DNA of 64,000 bases from an uncultured Gemmatimonadaceae bacterium (GCA_963740355.1 CAVUDW010000003.1:800001-864000); one strand, 5' to 3'; shown: positions 41,236-58,400, counted from the stretch's first letter. The notes: generated by a model from the sequence alone, not told the origin. Program-made: numbers and translations.

Positions 41236-42138
41236 TTGTTGACCCGACGCATCCTCATTCTGGCCACGATCCTCGGCACACTCTGTGGGCTGCCACTGTC
41301 CGCGCAGCGTCCGGTGAAGGTGTTCATCTCGGTCGACATGGAGGGCATCGGTGGCGTGGTCACGTCCGAGCAACTCAGCCCGACGGGATTCGAGTACGCG
41401 AAGTTCCGCGAGTACATGACTGCTGAGGCACTCGCGGCGATCGAGGGTGCGCGACAGGGCGGCGCAACCGAGTTCGTGGTCGCCGACGCGCATGGCAACA
41501 TGCAGAACCTGCTCATCGACAGGTTCCCGGTTGGGGTGAGTATCGTCCGCGGATCACCGCGGCCGCTGATGATGATGCAGGGCATTGACTCGACATTCAG
41601 CGCCGCAATGTTCATCGGGTACCACGCTGCCACCACCAACGCGCAAGGCGTGCGCGCACACACCATTTCCAGCGCGACGTTTTCCGCCGTGAAGTTGAAT
41701 GGTCGACCGATGGCAGAATCAGCCATCAACGCGACGGTCGCCGGGTCCTTCGGCGTGCCCGTGGTGATGGTGTCCGGCGACGAACAGGCCGTGGCCGAGG
41801 TGCAGTCGCTTTTGGGCAACGTGGAAGGGGCTGTCGTCAAACGCTCGATCAGCTTTCACGCAGCCGTGGTCATGACGCCCGAGGCATCCCAGGCCATCAT
41901 CCGCAGCAAGGCGAAGGCGGCAATGCTCCGACTGAGCGAGTTCAAGCCGATGCCGGCGCGCGGGCCATTCATGCTGGAGCTCTCCTTCAAGAGCTATACG
42001 CCGGCTGAAATGATGGCCTACATGCCCGGCGTGGACCGGGTGGACTCACACACGATCCGCTTCCGTGCGGCGTCCATTGTAGACATCTCGCGATTCCTTG
42101 AGTTTGTCACCAGCTATCGCGCGGATCTCACGCCGTAG
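41236..42138 (+). CDS. M55 D-aminopeptidase (DppA family) with signal peptide
   Basis: ISVDMEG, VADAHG, FIGYHA, AHT, VSGD. Confidence 0.9.
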   Translation: MLTRRILILATILGTLCGLPLSAQRPVKVFISVDMEGIGGVVTSEQLSPTGFEYAKFREYMTAEALAAIEGARQGGATEFVVADAHGNMQNLLIDRFPVGVSIVRGSPRPLMMMQGIDSTFSAAMFIGYHAATTNAQGVRAHTISSATFSAVKLNGRPMAESAINATVAGSFGVPVVMVSGDEQAVAEVQSLLGNVEGAVVKRSISFHAAVVMTPEASQAIIRSKAKAAMLRLSEFKPMPARGPFMLELSFKSYTPAEMMAYMPGVDRVDSHTIRFRAASIVDISRFLEFVTSYRADLTP

Positions 42139-42184: not shown

Positions 42185-42433
<249 letters not shown>

Positions 42434-42530
42434 GTCGCCGCTGGTCTTCAACGTCATGGCGTTCAGCCCGCTGGTGTCAGCGGAGTTGCTGCGACGTCGC
42501 ATCGACGTCCGTCCTCTTATCCGAGTAGCT

Positions 42531-42983
42531 GTGTCAGCGTCGTGGGTTCCAGTCTCGTTCGAGACCTGTGCGTACGTGCAGGGCCCCTTCTATCATGGAA
42601 CGCGCGCCACGCTGTCCGTGGGCGACCTGTTGACGACGGGGCACGAAACGCATTTCGAAAGTGGTCGGGTACTCAAGCACCTGTATTTCGCTGCACTGAT
42701 GGAGCCAGCGATCTGGGGGGCCGAGCTCTCGATTGCTTTGTCCGGGTCGTCCGGGCGCGGCCACATCTATGTGGTGGAGCCAACTGGGCCGTTCGAGGAT
42801 GACCCCAATTTGACCAACAAGCGCTTTCCGGGGAATCCCACGCGGTCCTATCGTTCGCGCGACCCACTGAGAATCGTCGGTGTGGTGTCTGACTGGCAGG
42901 GACACTCTGCTGAAATCATTCGGGGAATGCTGGACTCCCTGGACAACCTGAAGCGCCAGGGTCTGTCCGTGATCGAGGAGTAG
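42531..42983 (+). CDS. arr: NAD(+)-rifampin ADP-ribosyltransferase
   Basis: 150 aa from GTG; QGPFYHGT, HLYF, WGAEL, YVVEPTGPFEDDPNLTNKRFPGNPTRSYRS. Confidence 0.95.
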   Translation: MSASWVPVSFETCAYVQGPFYHGTRATLSVGDLLTTGHETHFESGRVLKHLYFAALMEPAIWGAELSIALSGSSGRGHIYVVEPTGPFEDDPNLTNKRFPGNPTRSYRSRDPLRIVGVVSDWQGHSAEIIRGMLDSLDNLKRQGLSVIEE

Positions 42984-43731: not shown

Positions 43732-44115
43732 TCACCCGCGGCGCGCCACCAACTCGATCTCCACCTGCGCATTCAGTGGCAGCCCCGCCACCGCCACCGT
43801 GGTGCGCGCCGGATGCGGCGCGTCGAAGCGCACGGCGTACGCCCCATTCATCGCTGCAAAGTTGGCCATGTCGGTCAGATAGACGTTGCACTTGATGACG
43901 TCGCCCATCGTCAGCCCGGCGTCCTTGAGCGCTCCCTCGAGGTTGTCGAACACCCGATGCGTCTGCGAGGCGACATCGCCGTCGATCAGCTTGCCGGTGG
44001 CGGGGTCGATCGGCGTCTGGCCGGAGAGATAGAGCAGGTCGCCGGCCCAGATTCCATGTGAGTAGGGGCCGATGGCGGCGGGAGCGGAGGGCGCGTGGAG
44101 GTGGGTGCGGGGCAT
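43732..44115 (-). CDS. RidA/YjgF/UK114-family protein
   Basis: APAAIGPYS, YLSGQ, FAAMNGAY, PARTTVAVAGLP..VEIE. Confidence 0.93.
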   Translation of the reverse strand: MPRTHLHAPSAPAAIGPYSHGIWAGDLLYLSGQTPIDPATGKLIDGDVASQTHRVFDNLEGALKDAGLTMGDVIKCNVYLTDMANFAAMNGAYAVRFDAPHPARTTVAVAGLPLNAQVEIELVARRG

Positions 44116-44341
44116 GGGGCGTTCCGGTGAGTGAGAATGACGGACGACACGGACACGATACTCACGGCGCACCGTGCCGCGTTGCTGCGGGCGAGGCAGG
44201 TGCGGAGTCAACGATACCAGCGTGCCGCCTGTTGCAACGATGGCCGCCCGCCGAGATTGCGTGTCGACGCCGGTGCGCCACCGACGCGACTGATCCGGCT
44301 CAGGTCCGGAACCATCCATATACAGCATTCCGGAGCACCCT

Positions 44342-45505
44342 GTGACGGATTCCACCGCACGACGTGATTTCCTGAAAGCCGGTGCGGCACTCGCATCGCT
44401 GAGCGTGATCCCGGATCGCTTCAGCACCGCGATGGCCGCGCCGCCGGCTGACACCTCAGTGAACATGTCGCATGACGGTCTGGTCCTGACGCCGCGCGAC
44501 TACTCCGCGCTCTTGCAGCGGATCACGGCCGACGGCAGGACCGAGGAGGACTACTACTCGCAAGGTGGCCCGGTCACGCAACTCGAGGCTGCCTGCGCGC
44601 GGCTCCTCGGTAAGGAGGCTGCCGTCTTCATGCCGACGGGTACGCTGGCCAACCACCTCGCCATCCGCGCGTTGGCCGGTGTCGATCGGCGCGTCATCGT
44701 GCAGCACGAAAGTCACCTGTTCAACGACACCGGTGACTGCGCGCAGACCCTGAGTCAGTTGACGCTGATGCCACTGGCACGCGGTCAGGCGACCTTCACC
44801 AAGTCCGATGTCGAAGAGGTCGTGGGCCGCACTGCGTCCGGCCGCGTCGCAACACGCGTCGGGGCGATCTCGATCGAGACGCCGGTGCGTCGCAAGGCCG
44901 GCGAGCAGTTCGCCATCAATGACCTGCGAGAGGTGACGGCGTTCGCGCGACAGCAGGGGATCCGGCTTCATCTCGACGGCGCACGAATGCTGCTCGCGTC
45001 AGCATACTCTGGCATGGCACCCTCGGAGTACGGCGCGATGTTCGACACCGTGTACATCTCGCTGTGGAAGGGCCTCAATGCCGCATCGGGCGCCATTCTC
45101 GCGGGTCCAAAATCGCTGCTCGACGGCATGTATCACACGCGCCGGATGTTCGGCGGCGGGTTGCCGCAAGCGTGGCCCTATGCGGCCGTTGCGCTGCACT
45201 ACCTCGACGGCTTCGTCGACCGCTTTCGAGCAGGTGTGCGGGTCTCAGAGGCGTTCATCTCCGAACTCGGTTCACGCGGCGGCGTGACGGCGGTTCGCAT
45301 TCCGAACGGATCGAACATCTTCCGTATTCCGTCAAATGGGATCGACGTACCTCGCGTCAGGACGGCACTGGCAGCACGCGGGATCGAGATCGCGGCTCCA
45401 CCGGCGGGAGCGACCGCGATCACACTGCAGGTGAATGAATCGTGGTCCCGTCGCAGCGGACCGGAGCTGGCATCGGAATTCCTGCGCGCGATGGGTCGTG
45501 CCTGA
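44342..45505 (+). CDS. Threonine aldolase-like PLP enzyme with Tat signal
   Basis: ARRDFLK signal, FMPTGTLAN, HLDGAR, ISLWKGL. Confidence 0.85.
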   Translation: MTDSTARRDFLKAGAALASLSVIPDRFSTAMAAPPADTSVNMSHDGLVLTPRDYSALLQRITADGRTEEDYYSQGGPVTQLEAACARLLGKEAAVFMPTGTLANHLAIRALAGVDRRVIVQHESHLFNDTGDCAQTLSQLTLMPLARGQATFTKSDVEEVVGRTASGRVATRVGAISIETPVRRKAGEQFAINDLREVTAFARQQGIRLHLDGARMLLASAYSGMAPSEYGAMFDTVYISLWKGLNAASGAILAGPKSLLDGMYHTRRMFGGGLPQAWPYAAVALHYLDGFVDRFRAGVRVSEAFISELGSRGGVTAVRIPNGSNIFRIPSNGIDVPRVRTALAARGIEIAAPPAGATAITLQVNESWSRRSGPELASEFLRAMGRA

Positions 45506-45556
45506 CAGCACGGCGAGGCAACGTCGGGCACATGACCGACGCTGCCTGTCAACGAC

Positions 45557-46270
45557 TTACGCGACGGCTGCCGCCACCGTCTCCGCGTCGGCCACGCGCC
45601 CGTCAAACAGATGTACCTGTCGTTTTGCGTGCTTCGCGTACCGCTCATCGTGCGTCACCATGCAGATCGTCGCGCCATTGGCGTTCAGCTCCTGCAGGAG
45701 AGACATGACCGCCTCGCCGTTTTTCGAGTCCAGGTTCCCAGTAGGCTCGTCGGCCAGCAGGATCGCCGGATCACCCGCCACTGCCCGTGCCACGGCCACA
45801 CGCTGCTGCTGGCCGCCGGAGAGCTGCGGTGGGTAGTGCTTCGAACGGTGCGACATCTCGACACGGGCCAACGCCCGTTCCACGCGTGCCTTCCGGTCAG
45901 CCGCAGTGAGGTCGTTGCGGTAGGTGAGTGGCAGCTCGACATTCTCGGCAACCGTGAGGTCGCCAATCAGGTTGAATGCCTGGAAGATGAAGCCGATCTG
46001 CCGGTTGCGGACGCGCGCCCGCTCTGCCGGCGACAGCGTGGCGACAGCCTGCCCCGCGAGCGTGTAGCTGCCACCACTCGGCGCATCGAGGAGTCCGAGG
46101 ATCGAGAGTAGCGTCGTCTTGCCGCAGCCGGACGGGCCCGCGATCGCAACGTATTCGCCCTCGGAAATCGAGAAGTCGATCGATTGCAACGCGTGCGTCT
46201 CCATCTCATCGGTGACGAACACCTTGCGGATGCCCTGCATCTCGATCAACGGCCGGTCAGTCGCGCTCAT
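45557..46270 (-). CDS. ABC transporter ATP-binding protein (LolD/MacB type)
   Basis: GPSGCGKT, IGFIFQ, LSGGQQQR, LLADEPTGNLD, VTHD. Confidence 0.95.
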   Translation of the reverse strand: MSATDRPLIEMQGIRKVFVTDEMETHALQSIDFSISEGEYVAIAGPSGCGKTTLLSILGLLDAPSGGSYTLAGQAVATLSPAERARVRNRQIGFIFQAFNLIGDLTVAENVELPLTYRNDLTAADRKARVERALARVEMSHRSKHYPPQLSGGQQQRVAVARAVAGDPAILLADEPTGNLDSKNGEAVMSLLQELNANGATICMVTHDERYAKHAKRQVHLFDGRVADAETVAAAVA

Positions 46271-46296
46271 GTTGGTAGCCAGCGTTCGGGGTGAAA

Positions 46297-47541
46297 TCAC
46301 TTGAGCCTCACTCGTGCCGCAGTGGTATAGGCGGACATGTCGGACAGGATGACGCGATCACCAACGGCCAGGCCACCGATGATCTCGACGCTGTTGGCGG
46401 AATTGCGACCCAGTGTGACGGCCACGCGCACGGCTTCGCGACCATCGGGTGTGAGCCGGAAGAGGCTCGTCTGGCCACCGGGAACGGCGATGGCCGGCCG
46501 ACCGGTGTAGCGCACATTCGTGAGCTTCTCGATCTGAATCGTACCGTCCACGCTCAGATCCGGCACAGCCCCCTGCGGCAACGTGCCTTCGAGGGCGACA
46601 TCGATCGTGACACTCCCCTGCTGCGCCGCAGGGTCCTTTCGGATCACATGTCCACGCACGATCCCGTTGCGGGTATCGACGCTCGTCACCTGTCCGATCA
46701 CCACATCCTTGGCCTGCGACTCCGGAATGCGAAGGACCGCCTTCAGTCGGCCAGGCTGCACCACCTTCGCCAGCGTCGTGCCTTCTGGCACCCACTGTCC
46801 CAACTGCAGGGTGAGGTCCTGGAGCACTCCGGCTTCCGGCGCCCGGACTTCGAGCGCCCGCAGGCGCGCCTGCTGATTCGCGGCAATCGCGCGCAGCTGC
46901 GTCACCTGCCCTGCTTGCGTCGCGACCTGCGCATCGATCGACTCGCGCATCAGTTGCAGCCGATCCTGCTCCACGCGCAGTCGCGTCGTCATCTCCTCGG
47001 CTGCCGCGCGCCGATTCGCGACCTCGAAGTTCGCCGCCAATCGAAGGCGCGCCAGCGAATCGACGCCGGCAGCCTCCTGCACCGCGCTGAGATGCTGCGT
47101 CCGCGCGGTTGCGACGACCCCTTCCTGCGTGAGCAAGCCACTCCGCAAGTTTGTCCGCAGCGACAGCAATGCACTCTCTGCCTGTCGCACCTGCTGATCT
47201 GCCTGCATCGACTGCAATTGCAGATCAGGATTGGAGAGCTCGAGCAGCAACTCGCCGGCCTTCACGATCTGCCCCGCTTGCACGTGCACACGCTCGACCC
47301 GCGCCGAGGCTTGCGCCGTGATCCACCGGATCTGCTCAGGGGCCAGCGCACCAGGCGCGCGCACCTCGCGCACGATGTCACCCTGACGCACGGTATCGAC
47401 GAGGATCGCCGCCCGTTCGATGGTGGGGAGCGCGGCATCGAGCCTCGAGATGGCGACGACGCCGACCACCGCCAGCACTGCGCCACCCGCGATCAACAGC
47501 TTGCGGCCGTTTCGCTTCGGTGGGGTTCGAACGATGTCCAT
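46297..47541 (-). CDS. Periplasmic adaptor (MacA/HlyD-family membrane fusion protein)
   Basis: N-terminal TM, lipoyl-like halves (VQAGQIVKAG, VRAPEAG), coiled coil, EIIGGLAVGDRVILSD. Confidence 0.9.
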   Translation of the reverse strand: MDIVRTPPKRNGRKLLIAGGAVLAVVGVVAISRLDAALPTIERAAILVDTVRQGDIVREVRAPGALAPEQIRWITAQASARVERVHVQAGQIVKAGELLLELSNPDLQLQSMQADQQVRQAESALLSLRTNLRSGLLTQEGVVATARTQHLSAVQEAAGVDSLARLRLAANFEVANRRAAAEEMTTRLRVEQDRLQLMRESIDAQVATQAGQVTQLRAIAANQQARLRALEVRAPEAGVLQDLTLQLGQWVPEGTTLAKVVQPGRLKAVLRIPESQAKDVVIGQVTSVDTRNGIVRGHVIRKDPAAQQGSVTIDVALEGTLPQGAVPDLSVDGTIQIEKLTNVRYTGRPAIAVPGGQTSLFRLTPDGREAVRVAVTLGRNSANSVEIIGGLAVGDRVILSDMSAYTTAARVRLK

Positions 47542-47583
47542 GGTCACGGTCGTTCCTTACGAAAGGTTCGCGTGCGAGGCGCC

Positions 47584-50085
47584 TCAATCATGGCGAAGCG
47601 CCTGCATCGGATCAACGAGCGCCGCGCGGCGCGCTGGCACGAAGCCAGCGGCAAGGGCGACGAGGGCCAGCATGATCACGGAGAGCGAGAAGACCGACGC
47701 GTCGAAGCCCTCGAGGCCGAACAACAGCGCGCGCGCCGCCTTGCCGATCCCGATGGCCGCCGAGACGCCGATCACGCCGCCAAGCAGCGTCATCAGGCCC
47801 ACCTGCTTCATCACCATGCCACGTACCCGGGCGGCATTGGCACCAAGGGCCATGCGAACTCCGATCTCGCGGGTCCGCTGCGCCACACTGAACGCCAGCA
47901 TGCCATAGAGCCCGATCCCCGCCAGCAACGTCGCAATCACGGCGAACGCTGCCGAAAGGATGCTGATCATCCGGTCGAGGAAGACATTCTCCCGGATCTG
48001 CTGCGGCATCGACTTCAGTTCCTCCACCGGCACGGTCGGGTCCAGCTTCTTCATCACGGCCGGAATGGCCGACATCAGCTGCGCGATCGGGAGCGACGAG
48101 CGCACGTAGAAATGCAGCGCGCCGATGCTGTGATCCTGCCGCACCGCGTAGTAGAACACCGGTGGAATGGTGTCCTTCACGTCGCTGTACTTCATGTCGG
48201 GAACGAGTCCCACGATCTGCACACTCAGCGAATCCTTCGGTTCGCCGTCCACCATGAACTTGCCGACGGCGTCGCGACCGAGATTGAACTTTTTCGCAAA
48301 GGCCTCGTTCACGACCGCCACCTTTGCCCCGCCATAACCATCCGACTCGGCGATGTCGCGACCGGCGAGCATTCGGACGCCGAGCATCGTGAAGTAGCCC
48401 GGACCGACCTGGTTGAAGCGCGAACCATTGTCGACATCGGGACCGCTGGCGAAGCCCTGCACCTGCACACCCGATCCCCAACTCTCTCCGGACAGCAGCG
48501 GCACTCGGCTCGACGTGACACCGGTCACCCCAGGAATCGTCTTCAACTCTTCCTCGACGCGGGCGAGGTAGATCGCGGCACGCGTGGTATCCATGCCGGC
48601 GCGCACCGGCGACACAGCGAACGTTGCCAGATCGTTGACGGACATGCCAAGGTCGACACGACTGACGTTGCGCAGGCTCTTGAGGAATAGGCCGGCAGAC
48701 ACCAGCAATGCCATCGACAGTGCAATCTGCACGGTGACGAGCGTCGCGCGGAACCGAGCCGCAGCCTTGCCGCCCGTGATCTGGCCTGCGCCCGCACGAA
48801 TGATACCGATCAAGTCAGAACGCGTGCTGTGCAGCGCTGGGAAGAGGCCGAAGATCACCCCGGTGACGAGCGCCAGGCCAGCAGTGAAGACGATCACCTG
48901 CGGTTGCAGGTGGAACTGGATCGAGTTCGCGGAATCAGCCGGCATCAGCGACGCGATGAAACTCAACGTCACCTTCGCCACCACCAGGCTTGCTGCGCCA
49001 CCAATCAGCGCCAGCAACACCGACTCCGTCAGCAGCAACGACAGCAGCTGCCTGCGACTCGCGCCCAGTGCCAGCCGCACACCCATCTCCGCCGAGCGCC
49101 CTGCACCGCGCGCGAGCAGCAGATTCGCAATGTTGGCACAGGCGATGAGTAGCACCACCATCGTCACGCCCATCAGGAGATAGAGCGGCGACTTCGCCTC
49201 CTGATGCACACTACTCTGACCACGCCGACCATCTTCCACGGTCAGCGTCCGGGCACGGAAGCGTGTCTGCGTCTGGTCGCTCATGCCCTCCTGCAGCGGA
49301 AGCTCGACGTCGTTGATGATCGGGCGATAGAGCGCGTTGAGCGCCACCTTCGCCTGCTCGAGCGTGACGTCGGGCTTCCGCCGACCGAACACATACACCC
49401 AGTACGACCGGCGATTCTCGAAGTTCTTGAAGCCGACTTCGAGCTCTGCGCGCATGGAGATCGGCACGTACACCACCGGCTCGAATCCGAGCGTCGTGCC
49501 GTGAAAATCCTTCGGGGCCACACCGATCACCGTAAACGTCTTGCCGTTGATGCGAATCGACTTGCCGATGGCAGATGGCGACTCGCCAAAGCGGTCGCGC
49601 CAGAACTCGTAGCTCAACACGGTGACGAAGTTCGCGCCGATGACGGCATCATCCGACGGCGCCAAGAGTCGACCGGCCGCGGCCTGCAGTTGCAGGGTCG
49701 GGAAATACGATCCCGACACCATCACGCCCCGGCCTGTCAGCGGCTCGCCATCGATGGCCAGGCTCGGGCCGAACCCGCGATGCGCAGCGAGACCCGTCAG
49801 TGACTTTTGCGTCCGCTCGAGGTCGCGGTACATCGGGTAACTCAGCACGACTTCGCAACTGCCGGATTGCGAACACTGGGTCTGCCCGGGTTTCGGCCCT
49901 GGTGCGCCGAGATTGACCAGCTCACCCGGATTCGGCACCGGGAGCGGCCGCAGCAACATCTGGTCGAACAACGAGAAGATCGCGGAATTTGCACCGATGC
50001 CGAGGGCCAGCGAGAGCACGGCGATCGCCGTCACGAACGGCGTCTTGAGCAACATGCGCGCTGCGAGCCGCAGGTTACGGAGCAT
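47584..50085 (-). CDS. Duplicated MacB/FtsX-type ABC permease (ADOP family)
   Basis: [57 protein letters not shown]. Confidence 0.93.
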
Positions 50086-50147
50086 AGATGTGATCCTTGG
50101 CGGATGAGAAGGACGCAGCGCACCCGGATCGGGGGCTCGGCGGTTCT

Positions 50148-50173
50148 GACGTAGCGGGACGCGGAAAGGTTTC
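50148..50173 (-). promoter_or_regulatory. Putative ECF-sigma promoter for the permease operon
   Basis: Minus strand GAAACC-N16-CGTC about 60 nt upstream of the permease ATG. Confidence 0.45.
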
Positions 50174-50265
50174 TTTTGCCCGCTGTGCCCCCCGCCGCGC
50201 GGATCAGTTCACAGCAGATCGGGCAGATGCGGCAGCGCGGGTGGCACTGCCCACCCGTGACCAGG

Positions 50266-51621
50266 TCACGGGAACGGGCGTGGGCGCGGCTGCGGCCAGG
50301 GCCACGGATCGGTCGCACGACGGCCGGCGAGCGAACGCACCGCAGCCTCCCGAACCGAGGCGTCGCTCGACTCGAGCAGCTCGGTCAGCAGCCCTTCCGA
50401 CCGCTCACCCGTCTCGATCAACGCGCGAAGCTGCGCGCGACGCACTTTCGAGTCCTTCTCACGCTTGATCGCGGCATTCAGCGCCGGCACGGCGGCCCGG
50501 TCGCGAATTTCGCCAAGGGCCCACGACGCCTTCAGTCGGATCTCGTCATCGGCATCGCTCAGCGCAGCGATCAATCCCGGCGGTGCGGTGCGCGTCTCGA
50601 TGTTGCCCAGTGCCCATGCCGCCGTGCCACGCACCTCACGGTCGGAATCGCGGGCCAGCACTTCGCCCAACACGCCCGCCGCGTCGGACGCCTCGCGTTC
50701 ACCGAGTGCCCACACCGCCGTCTCGCGCACCTTGGCATCACTGTCCTTCTGCGCCGAGATCTTGAGGCCGGTCACGCCAGCCTGCGAGTCGATGTTGCCG
50801 AGCGCCCAGGCGCACATCTCGCGGACACGCGGATCAGCATCACGCGACAGCACTTCGGCGATGTCCCGTGCGGCGGCTTCGGCCTCGAGATTCCCGAGCG
50901 CCCAGGCGGCTGTGCGGCGCACCGACGCAACGCGATCCTCGCGCAGCACCCGCAGCAACGCAGGCACGGCGCTGCTGGAGTCCATCTGCCCAATCGCACC
51001 GACACTCGCTTCGCGCACCGTGGAATCGGCATCGGCCAGCGTCGCGATGAGCGGACGAAGCGCGCTGCCGTCTTCGAACCGCCCGAGTGCCCACGCGGCA
51101 TTTGCACGAACACCAGCCGATGGATCACGCAGCGCCTTCGTGATCGCGGAGGTCGCGGCCTTCGGCTCCAGCAATCCGAGGCCGAGCACCGCCGTTTCGC
51201 GCACGGATGAATCGGAATCCGACAGGCGTGTCAGCAGCCCCGCAATCGCTTCGTTGCCACCAACTCGACCAAGGATGCGGACGGAGATCGCCCGCACGCA
51301 GCGGTCCATCGAGGAAACGTTCTCCAGCAGCAACTGCACATCGGGACCTGACGCCATCTCACTCCGTTCTTCGTCATCGTGCGAGAGTCGCACCGGCGGC
51401 AGTGGCGTGTGTGGCGCCGTGAGGTGCCCGCCGCCGTACCAGCCGCGCTGACCGATCGCATCAGCAGCCAACGAGCAGACGGTTTCTGGCGCACCGCGTG
51501 CAGCAGTCAACAGCGCTCGCAGATCGTTCGCGATCGCGGCTGGCGCATGCGCCTCGGCGACGGACCCACGTGAACAGGCGATGATCGCTCCAGCGATCAC
51601 AAGGGCAAAGCTTCGAACCAT
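50266..51621 (-). CDS. HEAT-repeat lipoprotein or secreted protein
   Basis: Lipobox-like IIAC; about 10 repeats of VRxxAxWALG; C-terminus PWPWPQPRPRPFP. Confidence 0.88.
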   Translation of the reverse strand: MVRSFALVIAGAIIACSRGSVAEAHAPAAIANDLRALLTAARGAPETVCSLAADAIGQRGWYGGGHLTAPHTPLPPVRLSHDDEERSEMASGPDVQLLLENVSSMDRCVRAISVRILGRVGGNEAIAGLLTRLSDSDSSVRETAVLGLGLLEPKAATSAITKALRDPSAGVRANAAWALGRFEDGSALRPLIATLADADSTVREASVGAIGQMDSSSAVPALLRVLREDRVASVRRTAAWALGNLEAEAAARDIAEVLSRDADPRVREMCAWALGNIDSQAGVTGLKISAQKDSDAKVRETAVWALGEREASDAAGVLGEVLARDSDREVRGTAAWALGNIETRTAPPGLIAALSDADDEIRLKASWALGEIRDRAAVPALNAAIKREKDSKVRRAQLRALIETGERSEGLLTELLESSDASVREAAVRSLAGRRATDPWPWPQPRPRPFP

Positions 51622-51640
51622 GAGAACTCCCGAGTGGATT

Positions 51641-51658
51641 GTGTTGATTTTTCAGCAC
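51641..51658. promoter_or_regulatory. Putative BlaI-family operator upstream of the HEAT lipoprotein gene
   Basis: GTGTTGA-TTTT-TCAGCAC palindrome, matching three copies at 54346-54392. Confidence 0.7.
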
Positions 51659-51782
51659 TTCAGGGCAAAGGAACAGCGCGATATACGCGCGTTCCCGTCA
51701 TGCAGTGTTCGACTATTCCGAGCGATCCGAACGAAACGAGCGGTACGAGTAATCGAGCGAATATCTGGCGACGCGACGTCGC

Positions 51783-53924
51783 TTACGGGAACGGACGCGG
51801 TCGGGGGCGCGGCTGCGGCCAGGGTTCGGAACCCTGTCCCGCCAAGGATCGAATCGCGAGCGCCCGCAATGGCGCATTGCCCGACTCGATCAATCGCTGG
51901 AGTGGTGCGACGGCCTTTTCGCCCATCACACCGATGGCGCGCACCATCGCCCACTTCACATCGGCGTCCATCTCCTTGTTGAGCGCTGATTCGATCGCAG
52001 CCGCAGTCTCGCCGTCTTCGATCTCATACAGGGCCCAGGCTGCGGTGGAGCGCACACGCGCGTTCCGGTCGGACAGCAGCGACACCAACGCCGCCGGTGC
52101 ACGCTTTGGGCTTGCGTTGCCGATGCCCCAAGCGGCGAGTTCGCGCACCTCTGCATCCTCATCGTCAAGCACCGACACCAGTGCATCGATCGATTCAGTG
52201 GACCGGCCACTGGCGCCATCACCCAGCGACCAGACCGCAGTCTGCTTCACCGACCGCTCGCGCTCCTGGCGAATGGCATCCGCCAGCGCAGCGGCGACGA
52301 TCGGCTTGTCAGCAGCGTCAGACAACGCCCATGCGGCCATCTCGCGTACCGAAGCACTCGGATCGCGCCTCACGGCATACACGAGCGCCTCGAGCGCGGC
52401 ACTGTTGTCAGTGAAATCATTCAGGCCCCACGCTGCCGTTCGACGGAGTGACGCCGATGTGTCCGTGCGCAGGATGCGAGCGAGGACACTGGCTCGCGCA
52501 CTGCTGTCCGACCGGGTTCGCACCGCGCGCATTTCGCGCAGCAACTCGTCTCGACGTTCCGTGCTCGATGATTCCGACGGGCTCTCGACGGCCACTGCCA
52601 ATGGAGCGGCCGCGGCGCGCGGTGCTGCTGATGCCTGCGGCGCCATCACGGCGTTGGCCGGACCCGAGACGGAGTTCGCCGCGCGTAGCGTCATCGTGTC
52701 GGCTCGCACCACTTCCCTTGTCGCCGTCCGTACGCGCCCGGAATCCTGCGCAACCATCGGCGCCTCATTCGAGCCCGCGTTTTGCGGCGGCGCTGGCTGC
52801 GGCGCGGTGGCGATGCGCGGCACCGCCGATCCCGTCACGATGGCAAACATCATCACACCACCGGCCAGCGTGCTGGCCTGCATCCGAGTCGGCGCTGAGC
52901 GCATCAGCGACGGATCGAGAATCGCAAGCATTCTGCCCTCGAACTCCGAGCGGGTCGCCATCGCCATCGCCACCGACGGTGTCGCGTGGTTGCGGACCGA
53001 AGTCACGATGTCGAGCAGGTGTTCCGCGTAGTCACTGGCACGCGTGCCGCAGCCGAGCGCGAGATCGTCGCACGCGCGCTCACCTTCGGCGCGCAGGCGT
53101 CGGGCCGCCGTCCAGGCGAGCGGGTGAAACCAATACAGCGCGCAAACGACACGACCAAGTGTGTGGCCCACCATGTCGCGACGACGGATGTGCGCGAGTT
53201 CGTGCAGCAATACCGCTGCTCGGCGATCACTGGTCCAGTTCTCACAGTCGGCAGGCAGCACGATCGTCGGGTGACGCAAGCCGCAGGCGAATGGCATCGT
53301 GACGTTGTCGGCGCGCAACAACTCTGGAATCGCACCAAGCTCGAGCCGGTCCGCGATGTCGATCATCGTGCCCTGCCACTCGTGTGCCGTCAGTGGCGTG
53401 GCCGTGCGCACGATGCGACGTACGCTGTATGCGCCATACGCCAGCCAGCCAAGCACCGAGGCCGCGACGACGGCCCAGGCGAGAACCACCATCGATACGA
53501 GCGAAAGTGGCGTTGAACTTTCACTCGAGCCGAGGGCACTGGCGGGCGCGGAGGTCGGCGCGGCTCCGTCGGCCGCTGTTGGCTCATTGCGCGTGACACC
53601 GGCAGGAACGCGAGTCGAGAGTGCGGCATCCGGGTTGCTGCTCCCGGTGGCAGCGACCGGCTCCGAGACCGTCGAGACCACTGGAGCGAAGCCCCATGAC
53701 GCGGGCAACACGGCGAATCGGACGGGGCTCCACACGGCGAGCATCGGCAGCGCCAACAGTGCGAGCAACGACGCAACCCAGACCAGGTGTCGCGACGTCG
53801 CCGAGGCACGCTGCATGAGCGTCGTCAGCGCGAGCGCGACCAGCAGGACGGCGGTCGCCTTCAGCACCACCAGTCCGGCCGGCACCAGTGCCACGGCTCG
53901 CGGATCGAGGAATTCGCTTTGCAT
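51783..53924 (-). CDS. BlaR1/MecR1-type M56 metalloprotease with C-terminal HEAT-repeat domain
   Basis: RHLVW, HELAHIRRRD, WFHPLAW, ERACD; last TM, low-complexity linker, HEAT repeats, C-terminus PWPQPRPRPRPFP. Confidence 0.92.
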   Translation of the reverse strand: MQSEFLDPRAVALVPAGLVVLKATAVLLVALALTTLMQRASATSRHLVWVASLLALLALPMLAVWSPVRFAVLPASWGFAPVVSTVSEPVAATGSSNPDAALSTRVPAGVTRNEPTAADGAAPTSAPASALGSSESSTPLSLVSMVVLAWAVVAASVLGWLAYGAYSVRRIVRTATPLTAHEWQGTMIDIADRLELGAIPELLRADNVTMPFACGLRHPTIVLPADCENWTSDRRAAVLLHELAHIRRRDMVGHTLGRVVCALYWFHPLAWTAARRLRAEGERACDDLALGCGTRASDYAEHLLDIVTSVRNHATPSVAMAMATRSEFEGRMLAILDPSLMRSAPTRMQASTLAGGVMMFAIVTGSAVPRIATAPQPAPPQNAGSNEAPMVAQDSGRVRTATREVVRADTMTLRAANSVSGPANAVMAPQASAAPRAAAAPLAVAVESPSESSSTERRDELLREMRAVRTRSDSSARASVLARILRTDTSASLRRTAAWGLNDFTDNSAALEALVYAVRRDPSASVREMAAWALSDAADKPIVAAALADAIRQERERSVKQTAVWSLGDGASGRSTESIDALVSVLDDEDAEVRELAAWGIGNASPKRAPAALVSLLSDRNARVRSTAAWALYEIEDGETAAAIESALNKEMDADVKWAMVRAIGVMGEKAVAPLQRLIESGNAPLRALAIRSLAGQGSEPWPQPRPRPRPFP

Positions 53925-53926
53925 GG

Positions 53927-54322
53927 CTACCTCCCGCTCTGGCGAGCGCCGGCGATCCGGGCACGCAGCGTCTGGAGTTCCGCGTCCGTGAGGCCGGTGT
54001 CCGACATTCGGAGCAGCGCGGTCACGGCATGCTCTGTGGAGCCCGCGAAATAGGTCCGGACGACATGGTCGAGCACATCGGCCTGCGCCTGCTCGGTGGG
54101 CGCCGCCGGGAAGTAGACATACCTCGGTCCGTCTTCCTTGAACGCGATGAGGGCCTTTTCGCCCAGGATGCGCAAAATCGAGCGGACGGCCGAGTAGGTG
54201 GGCGGATCGGGGAGCTCCGCCATGATCTCCGCCACGGTCGATTCTCCTCGACGGTGGAGGATGTCCATCACCTGCCGTTCGCGTCGGGTGAGGTCTTCGG
54301 TTGGCTTTGGCGTGGGCGTCAT
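53927..54322 (-). CDS. BlaI/MecI/CopY-family transcriptional repressor
   Basis: LTRRERQVMDIL, YSAVRSILRIL, RYVY, YFAGS; 2 nt upstream of the M56 gene. Confidence 0.92.
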   Translation of the reverse strand: MTPTPKPTEDLTRRERQVMDILHRRGESTVAEIMAELPDPPTYSAVRSILRILGEKALIAFKEDGPRYVYFPAAPTEQAQADVLDHVVRTYFAGSTEHAVTALLRMSDTGLTDAELQTLRARIAGARQSGR

Positions 54323-54345
54323 GACGGCAGGGGCTCGGGGCTATG

Positions 54346-54410
54346 CTGAATTTTCAGTCTGTTGAATTTTCAACTGTGCTGATTATTCAGCAGAGCCGCC
54401 GCCCTGTCAA
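54346..54410 (-). promoter_or_regulatory. Sigma70-like promoter with three tandem palindromic operators
   Basis: Minus strand TTGACA-N17-AATAAT; palindromes CTGAATTTTCAG (54346-57), GTTGAATTTTCAAC (54361-74) and TGCTGATTATTCAGCA (54377-92). Confidence 0.8.
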
Positions 54411-54715
54411 GCCCCCGCCGTTCTCTCCGGTCTCTGGGCGACCACTGTCCCGTCCCCGACGCGCCGCGTGATCCACCCCTCCTCCTGCAGCCGACTGAGC
54501 GCCCCTTCGACGGTATTCCGCGACACGGCGAGGTCCGCCACCAGCGCCCGGGACGACGGCAGCCGAGCTCCGGGCAGCAGTCGCCCGGACTCGATCCGCT
54601 CGCGCAACTGCAGGTAGATCTGCCGATAGAGCGCGGTCCCCGCCTCTGCATCGGCCCGCGACAGCTTGAGCGGCGGACCGGTTCCGATCGGCACTCTCTT
54701 CTTCGGTGCTGTCAT
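54407..54715 (-). CDS. GntR-family winged-helix domain only (MocR/GabR-like N-terminus)
   Basis: LYRQIY..IESGRLLPGARLPSSRAL..VSRNTV..LQEEGWI; GGAGG RBS; no effector domain. Confidence 0.8.
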   Translation of the reverse strand: MTAPKKRVPIGTGPPLKLSRADAEAGTALYRQIYLQLRERIESGRLLPGARLPSSRALVADLAVSRNTVEGALSRLQEEGWITRRVGDGTVVAQRPERTAGA

Positions 54716-54741
54716 CCTCCACCTCATCGCTTCAAAACTTC

Positions 54742-55028
54742 GAACTGCTCGAACGCAGCACGGCAACAGCGAACTGCATTAACGCGGAACAGCTGAACGG
54801 CGATACTGCAACAGCCGCAGAACAGAACAGCCGCAGAACTGCAACTGCAGACGGCGAGGTAAAGGGCCTTGGAAACGGGAGGTCGGCGAGCGAGAAGTTC
54901 TCACGAAGAATCAGAAACTCCCGCCGTGCGAGACTGAAATTTCCAAGGGCAGTTTTGCGGAAGTTCGCAGTCTTGCGGCTGTCGCTTCATCCGTGTGCTG
55001 TTTTGCGATCAAGCAGTAGCAGTTGCAA
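54742..55028. repeat. Fold-back intergenic element, family B (degenerate)
   Basis: Left side has AACTGC and ACAGCCGCAGAAC units; right side has GTTTTGCGG, TTGCGGCTGT and GCTGTTTTGCGATCAAGCAGT; inner CCTTGGAAA/TTTCCAAGG. Confidence 0.7.
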
Positions 55029-55042
55029 TTGCCCTTCGTCTA

Positions 55043-56371
55043 TCATCTCGCGCCCGGAACGAGCGCCTGGTACACGAGGGTCATGAAGCGCGACGAGATG
55101 TCGCTGGAGTTGGGGAGCTGCTGGATCATGAACACTATCACCAGCCGTTCCTTGGGATCCACACTGTAGTTCGAGCCGTAGGCGCCGCCCCAGCCGTAGG
55201 AACCGACGGAGCGGAAGCCGTCGGCGCCGAGGCGGTCGACGGTCGAGAAGCCGAGCCCAAAACCCATGCCATCATTGGAGAAAAGCGTGCCCACCTGGTT
55301 GGTGGACATCAGCTCCACCGTGCGCGGTGCGAGAATCCGTGCGCCATCGAGCACGCCGCCATTCAACATCATCTGCAGCAGGCGTGAGTAGTCACGCGCC
55401 GTCGACAGCAGGCCGGCGCCACCCGAAAAGCTTTTACGCGGGCCTTCCACGTAATCGCCCTGTCCGCGCGGACCGTCGGGGGCGCGCACGCTGTGCCGGG
55501 TGGAGTCGCTCATGTACACGGTCGTGATGCGCGAACGCTTCGACTCGGGCAGGTAGAAGTGCGTGTCGGTCATCCGCAGCGGCGTCGTGATGCGCGTGCG
55601 GAAGAACTCATCCAGCGGCATCCCTGACACGCGCTCCACGACGCAGCCGAGGATGTCGGTGTTGTATCCGTAGACGAACGCTGCGCCAGGCTGCGCCACG
55701 AACGGCAACGTGCCAAGACGATCCATCGAGGAGCAGGTCGGCTCGCTCTTGTCGGCCGTGTACCACCCCCACCCCGCCGCCGGTCCGAGTGACTGTGCGC
55801 GGTAGGCCTCTGCCACACGCTGATCCGTGCCGTACGAAATGCCTGCGGTGTGCGTCAGCAGGTCCTTGATCGTGATCGGGCGCCGCGCTGGCACCGCGCT
55901 GGTCGCCCCCTCTGCCATCACCGTGGTGTTGGCGAAGGTCGGCATGTAGGTGCTCACCCGATCGCCCAACGTCAGCTTTCCTTGCTCGACCAGCGAAAGG
56001 ATCGCGATGCTGGTGAGGGCCTTGGTCTGCGAGGCGATGCGGAAGATTGCGTCCGGTGTCATGCGACGCGATGACGCCTTGTCTGCATATCCCACTGCGC
56101 GCTCGTAGATCAATTTGCCGTCTCGCATCACCAGGCCGACGGCACCGGTGATGCTGTTGTCGGCGACGGCACCTTCCAGGAGCGAGTCGAGCCGCGCAAG
56201 TCGTGCACGCGACACGCCGGCGACCGTGGCGGCGCGCGCCTCCGGTGCTGCGAATCCAGCCTGGGCCCGCGCTGTGGAAACCAGTGGCGCCGCAACCAGC
56301 GCGAACGCGAAGCCGACGTTGCGCAGGCTGGCCGCAACGACACGAGTGACGCGATAGAATGAAGGAGTCAT
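55043..56371 (-). CDS. Beta-lactamase-family serine hydrolase (S12 / esterase-like)
   Basis: FRIASQTK (SxxK), LLTHTAG, FVYGYN, SGGAGLLSTARDY, WGGA. Start uncertain. Confidence 0.9.
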   Translation of the reverse strand: MTPSFYRVTRVVAASLRNVGFAFALVAAPLVSTARAQAGFAAPEARAATVAGVSRARLARLDSLLEGAVADNSITGAVGLVMRDGKLIYERAVGYADKASSRRMTPDAIFRIASQTKALTSIAILSLVEQGKLTLGDRVSTYMPTFANTTVMAEGATSAVPARRPITIKDLLTHTAGISYGTDQRVAEAYRAQSLGPAAGWGWYTADKSEPTCSSMDRLGTLPFVAQPGAAFVYGYNTDILGCVVERVSGMPLDEFFRTRITTPLRMTDTHFYLPESKRSRITTVYMSDSTRHSVRAPDGPRGQGDYVEGPRKSFSGGAGLLSTARDYSRLLQMMLNGGVLDGARILAPRTVELMSTNQVGTLFSNDGMGFGLGFSTVDRLGADGFRSVGSYGWGGAYGSNYSVDPKERLVIVFMIQQLPNSSDISSRFMTLVYQALVPGAR

Positions 56372-56417
56372 GCCGGCCACAATGCCCCCCTGCACCGCCT
56401 TCAGCAAGGCACGACCC

Positions 56418-57638
56418 ATGCGCTGGCTTCCCGCGTCCCTGCTCGCCCTCAGCGCGTGTGCCGCACGCGGCCACTCGACGCCCTACAGCAATCCACACGT
56501 ATCGGAACCCATCGGCACCGTGCGCGAGATGTACGACGGACGGCTGACGCCAGAGCTGGCCGCACAGACGTTTCGCAACATCGATCGCCTCTTCCCCTCG
56601 CGCATCGTCGCCAACGGCGCCACGGTCTCGCCCCTGCCGCCGGCCGCCGCACCGCTGGTGTCAGTCGACTTCACCGCGGCCGGAAAGACCTACTCGATCG
56701 ATGACTACATGCGCATCAATCGAGTGAGCGGCCTGCTGGTACTGAAGGACGGACGTGTGGCACTGGAGCGATACGCCCTCGGCGCCACGCCGCAGACGCA
56801 CTGGATGTCCATGTCGATGGCGAAGTCCGTGACCTCGACACTGATCGGGATCGCGCTCGAGGAGGGTCGCATCACGACGCTCGATGATCCGGTCACGAAG
56901 TACGTTCCGTCGCTGGCTGGCAGTGCGTACGACGGCGTCAGTGTGCGGAACGTGCTGATGATGGCCTCGGGCGTCCGATGGAACGAGACCTACACCGATC
57001 CAAATTCTGATCGGCGTCACCTGCTCGAAGCACAGATTGCTCAGCGACCCGGCGCCGCGCTGGCCCTCATGGCGTCCCTCCCACGCGCCGCGGCCCCCGG
57101 CTCGAAATGGAATTACAGCACCGGTGAGACGCTCGTCGCCGGCGAACTGCTCCGCGGTGCGATCAATACATCGTTATCAGGATACCTGAGCGAAAAGATC
57201 TGGAAGCCGGCGGGAATGGAGAGTGCCGCGACCTGGTGGCTCGATTCGCCCAACGGCCACGAAATCGCTGGCAGCGGCATGACCGCCACGCTGCGCGACT
57301 GGGGACGCTTCGGGCTGTTCGTCCTCAACGACGGTGTCATCAACGGGCGCAAGCTGTTGCCCGACAACTGGTTCGCCGAGGCCGGCACCCCGCGCACGCT
57401 GGTCAACGGGCAGTCTCAGCAGTACGGCTACATGTGGTGGCCAACGCCCGCCGCGCCAGGCTCCATCAATGACGGTGCCTTCAGCGCGGAGGGGATTTTC
57501 GGGCAGTGGACATACATCAATCCCAGCCAGCATCTCGTGATCGTACAATTGGCCGCACAAACGGTCCCATCTGGCGGCGATCTGCTGAATCCTGAGGATT
57601 TCTTCGGCGCAATCGCGACCGCACTCGCAGCACGGTGA
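56418..57638 (+). CDS. Beta-lactamase-family serine hydrolase lipoprotein (NylB-like)
   Basis: Lipobox LSAC, SMSMAKS (SxxK), WNYST, YGYMWW, GIFGQ. Confidence 0.9.
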   Translation: MRWLPASLLALSACAARGHSTPYSNPHVSEPIGTVREMYDGRLTPELAAQTFRNIDRLFPSRIVANGATVSPLPPAAAPLVSVDFTAAGKTYSIDDYMRINRVSGLLVLKDGRVALERYALGATPQTHWMSMSMAKSVTSTLIGIALEEGRITTLDDPVTKYVPSLAGSAYDGVSVRNVLMMASGVRWNETYTDPNSDRRHLLEAQIAQRPGAALALMASLPRAAAPGSKWNYSTGETLVAGELLRGAINTSLSGYLSEKIWKPAGMESAATWWLDSPNGHEIAGSGMTATLRDWGRFGLFVLNDGVINGRKLLPDNWFAEAGTPRTLVNGQSQQYGYMWWPTPAAPGSINDGAFSAEGIFGQWTYINPSQHLVIVQLAAQTVPSGGDLLNPEDFFGAIATALAAR

Positions 57639-57740
57639 TGGCGCATCGGTGTCGACGGTAGTTTTCATGCCGACGGCCAACGCCACACGCCTCGGCCGCG
57701 TACAAAACTCATGCGACCTGCAGCCACGACGCCACGACCC

Positions 57741-58400
57741 ATGCGCCCGATCATCGCCCTTGCGAGCGCCTTCTGCGCCGCCACTTGCCTCGCGACATCA
57801 CAGCTCTCCGCGCAGGCCGCACCACCGCAATACGTCACCGCCAAGGTTCGTGCCGACAGCGCACGGTATCCGTATACCGAAGCCGACGTGTCGTTCATGT
57901 CGGGAATGATCGGCCACCATGCACAGGCCATCGTGATGGCGAAGTGGGCGCCAAGCCACGGCGCCGATCCAGCCGTGCAGCGTCTCGCCGAACGCATCAT
58001 CAACGCGCAGGAAGACGAGATCGCGACCATGTCACGCTGGCTCGCGGATCGACAGAAGCCGGTGCCCGAAGCCAAGCCGATGTCGCACGACATGCCCGGC
58101 ATGGCTGGCATGGACCACTCGGCAATGATGATGCCCGGCATGCTGACCGATGCGCAGATGAAGGAACTCGACGCAGCGCGCGGCCCGGAATACGACCGGC
58201 TTTTCCTCACCTACATGATCCAGCACCACAAGGGTGCCACGGCGATGGTCACGAAGCTGTTCGGCACCACCGGTGCAGGCCAGGACGAGACGGTGTTCAA
58301 GTTCGCGTCCGACGTGAACGTCGACCAGACCACCGAGATCGCGCGCATGCAGCGCATGCTGTTCGAGTTCGAGTTGAAGCGCGCTGGCGCACCTGACTGA
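57741..58400 (+). CDS. DUF305-domain secreted protein
   Basis: FMSGMIGHHAQA, Q..EI..M, Met/His-rich linker, MIQHHKGA, DQTTEIARM. Confidence 0.9.
   Translation: MRPIIALASAFCAATCLATSQLSAQAAPPQYVTAKVRADSARYPYTEADVSFMSGMIGHHAQAIVMAKWAPSHGADPAVQRLAERIINAQEDEIATMSRWLADRQKPVPEAKPMSHDMPGMAGMDHSAMMMPGMLTDAQMKELDAARGPEYDRLFLTYMIQHHKGATAMVTKLFGTTGAGQDETVFKFASDVNVDQTTEIARMQRMLFEFELKRAGAPD

Follow-up and report, generated by a model that had tools for sequence, protein, structure and literature searches.

A probable self-contained BlaI/BlaR-family switch with a HEAT-repeat sensor in an uncultured Gemmatimonadaceae bacterium

Results

A 64,000-nucleotide (nt) stretch of an uncultured Gemmatimonadaceae genome of 5.45 Mb (GCA_963740355.1 CAVUDW010000003.1:800001-864000), hereafter the window, carries six open reading frames (ORFs) head to tail on its minus strand between 45557 and 54322, with intergenic gaps of at most 180 bp (Table 1). 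ORFs were called on this stretch, and coordinates are positions within it. An earlier sequence-only reading had described these six genes as one sensing-and-export system, and the co-orientation that it noted is confirmed, all six ORFs being found on the minus strand. We argue that the first three genes in the direction of transcription, at 50266-54410, probably form a self-contained, autoregulated BlaI/BlaR-family switch that is independent of the exporter behind it. These genes encode a BlaI-family repressor, an M56 protease continued by HEAT repeats (M56-HEAT) and an exported HEAT solenoid (HEAT2). The blaI stop codon and the M56-HEAT start codon overlap by 4 nt, as do the start of the ABC ATPase gene and the stop of the adaptor gene, while 180 bp separate HEAT2 from the ADOP-family permease gene. 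PADLOC gave only generic HEAT and ABC matches at the locus, and an Rfam scan of 44000-56000 gave no match at E values up to 0.1 and no riboswitch ahead of the exporter.

Table 1. Genes and sequence features at the locus (window positions; aa, amino acids)
Feature	Position	Strand	Description
blaI	53927-54322	-	131 aa; BlaI/MecI/CopY-family winged-helix repressor; PF03965 Penicillinase_R, 81.5 bits (cut-off 22.6), residues 11-123
M56-HEAT sensor-protease	51783-53924	-	713 aa; Peptidase_M56, 121.2 bits (cut-off 31), residues 20-334, then HEAT_2, HEAT and Arm
HEAT2, exported HEAT solenoid	50266-51621	-	451 aa; HEAT_2 match, 9e-57; signal peptide with lipobox IIAC
Sensor tail EPWPQPRPRPRPFP	codons 51786-51827	-	C-terminal end of M56-HEAT
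HEAT2 tail DPWPWPQPRPRPFP	codons 50269-50310	-	C-terminal end of HEAT2
blaI promoter	54382-54410	-	sigma-70-like, TTGACA-17 nt-AATAAT, 11/12 matches; sole promoter-like site in 45000-55000
Three palindromic operators	54342-54394	.	cores 54346-54357, 54362-54373 and 54379-54390; 16-17 bp apart
Single HEAT2 operator	51640-51659	.	core 51644-51655; matrix score 31.1, highest in the genome
Terminator-like hairpin	51676-51690	-	GC hairpin then T-rich run, between M56-HEAT and the HEAT2 operator
Two adjacent stem-loops	50231-50272	-	8-bp GC stems overlapping and directly following the HEAT2 stop; without U tract; -31.3 kcal/mol, z = -2.26
ADOP-family permease	47584-50085	-	833 aa; duplicated MacB-type permease; TIGR03434, 808.6 bits (cut-off 622.3); MacB_PCD and FtsX; neighbour outside the conserved cassette
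Periplasmic adaptor (membrane-fusion protein)	46297-47547	-	416 aa; TIGR01730, 108.6 bits (cut-off 94.9); HlyD, HlyD_3; neighbour
MacB/LolD-type ABC ATPase	45557-46300	-	247 aa; ABC_tran; neighbour
D-aminopeptidase (M55)	41236-42138	+	neighbour
Rifampin ADP-ribosyltransferase (Arr)	42324-42983	+	PF12120, E = 8e-41
RidA-family protein	43732-44466	-	neighbour
Beta-eliminating lyase	44342-45505	+	neighbour
Short GntR-type ORF	54407-54766	-	119 aa, helix-turn-helix domain only
PF00144 serine hydrolase	55043-56419	-	beta-lactamase family
PF00144 serine hydrolase	56370-57638	+	beta-lactamase family
DUF305 protein	57711-58400	+	neighbour

M56-HEAT keeps the protease of BlaR1 and replaces its sensor. 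The sequence-only reading had described a BlaR1-like protease with an intact HExxH motif, and this is borne out: HELAH stands at residue 241, and H241, E242, H245, D250, E282 and D286, which align with BlaR1 H201, E202, H205, D210, E242 and D246, are invariant across 116 homologues. When a profile of the N-terminal 370 residues of 20 family members was searched against the PDB, BlaR1 entries were the sole matches (8exp and related, E = 2e-8). Hydropathy marks four hydrophobic segments (9-38, 44-74, 136-165 and 350-368) with the protease domain between the third and fourth, as in BlaR1; a weak Peptidase_M48 match was also recorded (E = 0.002). Behind the protease follow a variable linker, HEAT repeats at about 473-697 and a Pro-X tail at about 700-713. 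The outer loop starts with a conserved WSPxRxxxLP. These repeats do stand in place of the penicillin-binding sensor, as had been claimed. Pfam profiles detected no transpeptidase domain (PF00905, penicillin-binding, SxxK) in M56-HEAT, and its NCBIfam scores are 81 bits for blaR1_generic against a cut-off of 400 and 22.5 for MecR1 against 1200.

By these family matches the cassette belongs to both the BlaI family and the M56 family, and because the defining penicillin-binding sensor is absent it is not BlaR1 in the strict sense. Since M56-HEAT has the four-segment layout of BlaR1, its HEAT domain is predicted to lie outside the cytoplasmic membrane. BlaI is a cytoplasmic protein, and HEAT2, the paralogue of the sensor domain, carries a signal peptide and a pair of invariant cysteines (C49 and C108); for these reasons the sensor HEAT domain is almost certainly periplasmic.

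A second conserved element of M56-HEAT lies at residues 325-333. It reads R-x-E-F-E-G-R-M-L, with E329, G330 and R331 invariant and E327 and F328 nearly so. It lies 42-45 residues past D286, beyond the end of the HMMER alignment with BlaR1, in about the same place as the BlaR1 autocleavage site S283/F284 and R293/R294. By this likeness of position it may be an autocleavage loop.

The three genes recur together in other genomes. A scan of one genome per species located 576 stretches that code for relatives, and the 80 best of these gave 79 loci, in which we called ORFs and start codons and compared the products with phmmer. A complete tail-bearing M56-HEAT gene is present in 50 of the 79. Where there was room to look, blaI lies directly upstream of it in 41 of 46 loci. 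Of the 40 loci that leave at least 1700 bp on the other side, 36 have a second HEAT gene immediately downstream, which bears the tail in 35. The figure of 36 of 40 is a floor, because at three of the four loci that seem to lack the gene (L051, L053 and L057) an operator still follows the sensor stop codon and the stretch past it resembles, by eye, the start of a HEAT2 gene. Co-occurrence in other genomes, on which the six-gene proposal depended, thus holds for BlaI, M56-HEAT and HEAT2 and is not supported for the exporter. The gene set extends beyond the family as well: BlaI, M56-HEAT and a small exported HEAT protein were found in five of five genomes from other Gemmatimonadota families.

The cassette is abundant and patchily distributed. 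Among 8000 candidates scored, sensor homologues form at least 2551 clusters at 90% identity; the best 120 all combine PF05569 with HEAT families, and the named ones are all Gemmatimonadota. A strict DNA pattern for the tail occurs twice on one strand, 1.2-1.6 kb apart, in at least 27 of 301 sampled genomes. The genome G287, of the same genus and 100% complete, has no cassette match. The tally behind this patchy distribution includes two unpublished genomes, G157 and G182, and the tail-pattern and other-family samples may include them too; none of the specific claims made here depends on these two. In two near-identical loci a phage-type integrase gene lies directly 3' of HEAT2 (L048:12544-13563 and L056:13886-14905). 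Taken with the patchy distribution, this is a hint of possible transfer of the cassette from genome to genome.

HEAT2 and the sensor domain are paralogues. The repeats in sensor residues 473-697 and HEAT2 residues 214-434 align one to one at 38% identity (RRTAAW, REMAAW and others). We built a quick maximum-likelihood tree of 38 sensor-domain/HEAT2 pairs, a more thorough tree search being unfinished. It set 36 of the 38 sensor domains on one side of a branch (Shimodaira-Hasegawa-like approximate likelihood ratio test, SH-aLRT, 95), with the same subclades recurring among sensor domains and HEAT2 proteins, mostly as parallel clades. This recurrence points to an old duplication whose products were inherited jointly. 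L059 and L063 are exceptions, each sensor domain clustering with its own HEAT2. In these two loci, and in L061, the HEAT2 gene is preceded by two tandem operators and its own TTGACA box; grouping and doubled operators together suggest re-duplication or gene conversion.

How HEAT2 is held in the envelope varies. The sequence-only reading had called it a lipoprotein, which fits the window, where HEAT2 shares the lipobox IIAC with its closest relative, L001, and does not fit the family: even a loose lipobox pattern is found in only 15 of 120 HEAT2 homologues, and most orthologues have a plain signal peptide or an anchor. The lipobox is, by this comparison, a feature of this lineage.

Both HEAT proteins present a predicted binding face lined with tryptophan. 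Modelling of HEAT2 alone with AlphaFold (AF2), a check that the sequence-only reading had proposed, gave a two-helix-per-repeat solenoid at residues 95-431 (36 orthologues in the alignment; predicted local distance difference test, pLDDT, 86.6; predicted template-modelling score, pTM, 0.84). The repeats are of the HEAT_2/HEAT_PBS type, about 31 residues long, as in the alphaRep/PBS-HEAT solenoid. A HEAT2 profile matched alphaRep in the PDB with E = 9e-103, and the model aligned with alphaRep structures at template-modelling (TM) scores on target of 0.78-0.89 (Z = 24.4; root-mean-square deviation, rmsd, 3.1 Å across 245 residues). YibA, CpcE/F and deoxyhypusine hydroxylase were the next structural relatives. 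An ESM Atlas search with the sensor domain returned generic HEAT clusters only.

The ladder itself is sharply conserved. In HEAT2 the tryptophan is 100% conserved in five of the six repeats bearing it and 91% in the sixth (W304), and in the sensor it is 100% conserved in five repeats; position W+4 is mostly occupied by N, Q, R, D or E. Neighbouring positions differ between repeats yet are conserved across orthologues. In alphaRep, positions 18, 19, 22, 23, 26 and 30 are the variable, target-binding ones on the concave face (PMC3754942; papers are cited by PubMed Central number). Profile alignment places the family tryptophan at alphaRep position 22, W+4 at 26 and W-4/-3 at 18/19. Concave positions that are specific to each repeat and conserved among orthologues are the signature of a defined ligand-binding surface, and we predict that the invariant tryptophan ladder lies on the binding face of both HEAT proteins. 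The W-x-x-x-N/D/E ladder had been likened to the groove of importin-alpha. The motif stands, as W-x-x-x-N/Q; the likeness does not reach the fold, which is that of a two-helix alphaRep/PBS-HEAT solenoid. Importin-alpha was rejected as a fold relative, with TM-scores of only 0.39-0.45 and an rmsd of 8-10 Å.

The two HEAT proteins end in the same Pro-X tail. A near-invariant PWPxPxPxPRPxP closes both, in the window as PWPxPxPxPRPFP, and among the 25,616 ORFs of the genome only these two have it. In the sensor, W702, P703, P705, P707, P709, R710 and P711 are invariant in 116 sequences. The tail is kept in 118 of 120 M56-HEAT homologues and 117 of 120 HEAT2 homologues, and it is the most conserved stretch of either protein. 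The HEAT2 model shows it as coil with a pLDDT of 59-72. In VIA-align rows for two designed armadillo proteins with a fused target peptide (6s9p_B and 6sa7_B), the aligned range of the HEAT2 model reaches residue 451, although such a range records no more than where an alignment starts and stops and does not demonstrate that the tail lies in the groove.

Tails differ among more distant relatives. Longer M56-HEAT proteins, named Longimicrobiales in their sources, have a related Pro-Arg run at the end, and 27 of 120 longer relatives have a Pro-X tail, all 27 listing PF05569. Other M56-HEAT clades have Pro-Arg tails without tryptophan, an acidic P-D version or no tail. One tail-less clade of 768-911 aa (L064-L075; L114-L117) lacks the window's operator motif, and in most of its loci the sensor gene is followed by one for a small HEAT protein (228-300 aa) that is exported, this second gene usually overlapping the sensor's stop codon or abutting it. 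The L117 sensor ends in an acidic run, ...DPDPDPDPDF.

Shared operators tie the two HEAT genes into one predicted regulon. The sequence-only reading had assigned a common operator and a common C-terminal tail to the sensor and the second exported HEAT protein, and we find both. The -10 hexamer of the blaI promoter falls within the first operator, and the three blaI-side palindromes (YTGA-W4-TCAR) overlap the promoter or lie after it. Across related loci the operator consensus is TGYTGA-W4-TCARCA. Of 50 loci, 42 have such sites ahead of blaI, usually two with a spacing of 17 bp, and 43 have one ahead of HEAT2. The order of hairpin and then operator between the sensor gene and HEAT2 recurs in related loci. 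Nine other matches occur in 810 kb; six adjoin a cassette at which the ORF call was extended, and the remaining three have flanks off consensus.

We then scanned the whole genome with an operator matrix made from 123 sites, whose training scores range from 21.7 to 33.6. Three sites alone fell within this range: 51640 (31.1), 54375 (29.1) and 54358 (28.6). The third blaI-side operator, at 54342, scores 17.8, below the training range, and the best match outside the cassette 17.1. The predicted regulon is thus the cassette alone, blaI-M56HEAT and HEAT2.

The exporter looks like a separate transcription unit that lies beside the cassette by chance in this lineage. Neither the pattern search nor the whole-genome matrix scan found an operator ahead of the ADOP gene. 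Within 10 kb of the cassette in the 50 tail-bearing loci, an ADOP gene occurs in 11, an adaptor gene in two and a similar ATPase gene in six, in varying orientations. All three are near the cassette in one locus of the 50, L001, where the exporter (77-83% amino-acid identity to that of the window) lies upstream, a PF00144 gene and a small ORF standing between on the opposite strand. Conversely, G287 has the ABC-adaptor-ADOP block intact (68% nucleotide and 62-77% amino-acid identity) next to a divergent glycosyltransferase-like gene, and nothing at that locus matches window 50070-54455. With two stem-loops after HEAT2, an exporter block that occurs without the cassette, no operator before ADOP and a single locus with the full set, the claims that the exporter is part of the system and that the six genes are one sensing-and-export unit are not supported.

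The exporter also departs from the MacB model and lacks a nearby outer-membrane factor. Its permease scores 96 bits against the MacB equivalog PRK10535, for which the cut-off is 966. None of the 41 OEP-domain matches in the genome falls in window 45000-55000, the nearest lying outside the window at contig position 879230, and the outer-membrane partner is possibly encoded elsewhere.

Other neighbours vary from locus to locus. The Arr gene lies 2.6 kb from the exporter. Two PF00144 genes stand just upstream of blaI in the window, and in L001 one PF00144 gene is divergent from blaI; as a conserved partner this family was rejected, being found in 3 of 50 and 2 of 50 loci with two queries. The stop codon of the short GntR-type ORF abuts the blaI -35 hexamer, and the ORF has a faint match in G287 beside that genome's own PF00144 genes. 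On the other side of the cassette, five loci (L003, L004, L040, L047 and L055) encode on the same strand after HEAT2 a DUF5916 protein of about 850 aa, with CBM9 in four of the five. It was rejected as a conserved downstream partner, occurring in 5 of 20 loci tested and in one subclade only. Other genes 3' of HEAT2 in 20 loci include a decarboxylase, esterase-type hydrolases, an M28 peptidase, a nuclease, a kinase, integrases and others.

Discussion

The cassette can be read as a BlaR1-like signalling switch whose output is a copy of its own sensor. By analogy with BlaR1, a ligand bound outside by the HEAT sensor would activate the M56 protease, which would cut BlaI, much as BlaR1 cleaves BlaI directly (PMC9834060). 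Loss of BlaI would open both promoters, that of blaI-M56HEAT and that of HEAT2. HEAT2 is the only non-regulatory product of the predicted regulon and is for this reason taken to be the effector: once induced, it would bind the sensor's own ligand in the periplasm, soaking it up and thereby also damping the signal. The finer points of this mechanism are each tentative at best, and some of them improbable.

The ligand is probably a polymer of repeating units in extended form, with a Pro- or Arg-rich peptide as the likeliest candidate, and would be held on the Trp/Gln-Asn ladder. We base this on the repeat surface and on precedent. Armadillo proteins hold extended peptides rich in Lys/Arg, with one unit at each repeat, and designed helical repeats bind polyproline-II peptides through ladders of Asn/Gln and aromatic residues (PMC10115654); importins bind Pro-Arg dipeptide repeats (PMC9734553, PMC7814465). 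The Pro-X tail may lie in the groove as a tethered mimic of the ligand. The importin-beta-binding (IBB) segment of importin-alpha, which autoinhibits that protein, offers one parallel. Another is the tethered outer loop EL1 of BlaR1 (AlphaFold pLDDT 60-75), which competes with antibiotic in the sensor cleft (PMC9834060).

These elements could be joined into a defence against antimicrobial peptides, which we consider unlikely as a whole. The groove would sense Pro/Arg/Trp-rich peptides, such as proline-rich or indolicidin-like peptides from competitors. At rest the tail would fill the groove as a mimic, and an incoming peptide would displace it and switch on the protease. The periplasm would then be flooded with HEAT2 as a sequestering sponge, from which the sensor would have evolved. 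The sequence-only reading had likewise proposed a sensor with a decoy or co-receptor; that much is plausible, and its coupling to an exporter is what lacks support.

Several points weigh against an autonomous switch with HEAT2 as its effector. That HEAT2 acts as a sponge and that the tail docks in the groove are ideas drawn from analogy only, and tail-less clades and those with acidic P-D tails argue against one universal tail-groove mechanism. The stem-loops after HEAT2 have no U tract, so that read-through across the gap of only 180 bp into ADOP is possible. The exporter adjoins the cassette in both the window and L001, the two closest loci, and a loose link between exporter and cassette is possible given the ADOP gene within 10 kb in 11 of 50 loci. 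The grouping of sensor domain with HEAT2 in L059 and L063 fits a need for the two to match, and a direct partnership between them explains it equally well.

That partnership is the alternative that we take most seriously, while holding it doubtful. HEAT2 would be a co-sensor or anti-sensor that binds the sensor HEAT domain, for example by exchange of tails between grooves, and the switch would report the amount, folding or location of HEAT2 instead of a free ligand. The tail and groove residues common to both HEAT proteins and the co-inheritance of the pair, including the L059 and L063 clustering, favour it, as does the lipobox of close relatives, by which HEAT2 could be a trafficked lipoprotein. 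NlpE and RcsF offer the comparison. The lipobox is not conserved in the family, however, and a co-sensor under the repressor that it relieves would make a positive loop without other output. The six-gene proposal, in which sensing of a periplasmic peptide by the HEAT domain leads to derepression of one operon whose MacAB-like exporter expels the threat, fares worse and is in our judgement improbable. It draws on the co-orientation and short gaps, on the adjacency and high identity of the exporter in L001, on the ADOP gene in about a fifth of loci and on the lack of a U-tract terminator after HEAT2. It is opposed by the missing ADOP operator, by the position of the L001 exporter upstream of the cassette behind two opposite-strand genes, by the scarcity of nearby adaptor and ATPase genes, by the exporter block of G287 and by the wide variation among genes 3' of HEAT2.

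The tail could instead be a membrane anchor, which is about as unlikely as the joint defence against peptides. Its Trp, Pro and Arg residues would form an interfacial anchor laying both solenoids on the membrane, and the switch would sense disturbance of the envelope or membrane, not a soluble ligand. Trp- and Arg-rich segments do favour membrane interfaces, the sensor would be tethered at both ends, and no stretch of either protein is better conserved. Against this stand the clades with Pro-Arg tails lacking tryptophan, with acidic P-D tails or with none, and a conserved, repeat-specific concave surface that points to a defined ligand. That M56-HEAT has a housekeeping role, processing HEAT2 or other exported proteins with BlaI as an ordinary autoregulator and no signalling switch, is very improbable. 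M48/M56-type proteases do include quality-control enzymes, and M56-HEAT has its faint Peptidase_M48 match; yet the active site, between the third and fourth membrane segments, is predicted to lie on the cytoplasmic side as in BlaR1, and BlaI and M56 are translationally coupled and co-occur in 41 of 46 loci. A self-contained three-gene switch is the probable reading.

The cassette is an unusually readable member of its class. Most genomic BlaI/BlaR-like pairs lack a penicillin sensor (PMC13492132). Here the pair is abundant, its predicted regulon is itself and one exported paralogue of the sensor, and conservation is sharp both on its likely binding face and in its tail. A search for the ligand could use the HEAT2 promoter for reporting and HEAT2 for capture, and autoinhibition could be probed by deleting the tail. 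Should HEAT2 prove to be a periplasmic sponge made on induction, it would represent a new, inducible kind of resistance in a soil phylum that has been little studied, and a natural counterpart of engineered peptide-binding repeat proteins. New in the present analysis are the operator matrix with its genome-wide regulon prediction, the placing of the tryptophan ladder on the alphaRep positions that bind targets, the account of how widely the tail occurs and in what variants, the tree showing co-inheritance and the evidence of exporter independence.

Comparison with known systems

BlaR1/BlaI and MecR1/MecI of Staphylococcus aureus and Bacillus licheniformis are the nearest regulatory models. The cassette shares with them a Penicillinase_R repressor with palindromic operators on its own promoter, and with BlaR1 an M56 zinc protease with all catalytic residues kept, four predicted membrane segments and a C-terminal domain that is predicted to lie outside. 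In both systems the sensor domain is related to an induced protein, which in the BlaR1 case is the resistance protein. The cassette differs in its sensor, a HEAT solenoid in place of a penicillin-binding domain with SxxK, in its Pro-X tail, in having a paralogue of the sensor domain as its only output, and in its host, a member of the Gemmatimonadota with two membranes. Operators differ too: those of BlaI and MecI are of the TACA/TGTA type, and the cassette has TGYTGA-W4-TCARCA.

Departure from the penicillin sensor is common in this family. CenIR of Clostridioides difficile, a non-canonical BlaIR, likewise combines a BlaI-like repressor with an M56 protease that has no transpeptidase sensor; unlike M56-HEAT, CenR has a short, disordered outer domain (PMC13492132). 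Bona fide transpeptidase-type BlaR proteins make up only about 6% of M56 homologues, according to the same 2026 survey. It distinguishes 254 M56 architectures, and HEAT is absent among those with at least 100 entries in its Fig. 7 legend (PMC13492132). We found no description of an M56-HEAT combination in the literature searched.

The neighbouring exporter resembles MacAB-TolC in its MacB periplasmic core with FtsX, its separate LolD/MacB-type ATPase and its adaptor. It differs in a duplicated permease (ADOP, TIGR03434) that has no fused ATPase and does not reach the MacB equivalog score.

The solenoids recall two groups of repeat proteins. With importin-alpha and designed armadillo proteins they share an AAWAL(G/S)N-like motif, with tryptophan and an amide one helical turn apart, and a Pfam Arm match; repeats there have three helices and about 42 residues, against two helices and about 31 residues here, so that the cassette proteins are not members of that family. 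The alphaRep and PBS-lyase HEAT-like repeats (MTH187, YibA, CpcE/F and deoxyhypusine hydroxylase) share the 31-residue two-helix repeat and its VRxxAAxALGxIG consensus. Their natural relatives are cytoplasmic, whereas the cassette HEAT proteins are exported. To the alphaRep plan the cassette proteins add an invariant tryptophan at variable position 22, a Pro-X tail, a conserved cysteine pair and an N-terminal cap.

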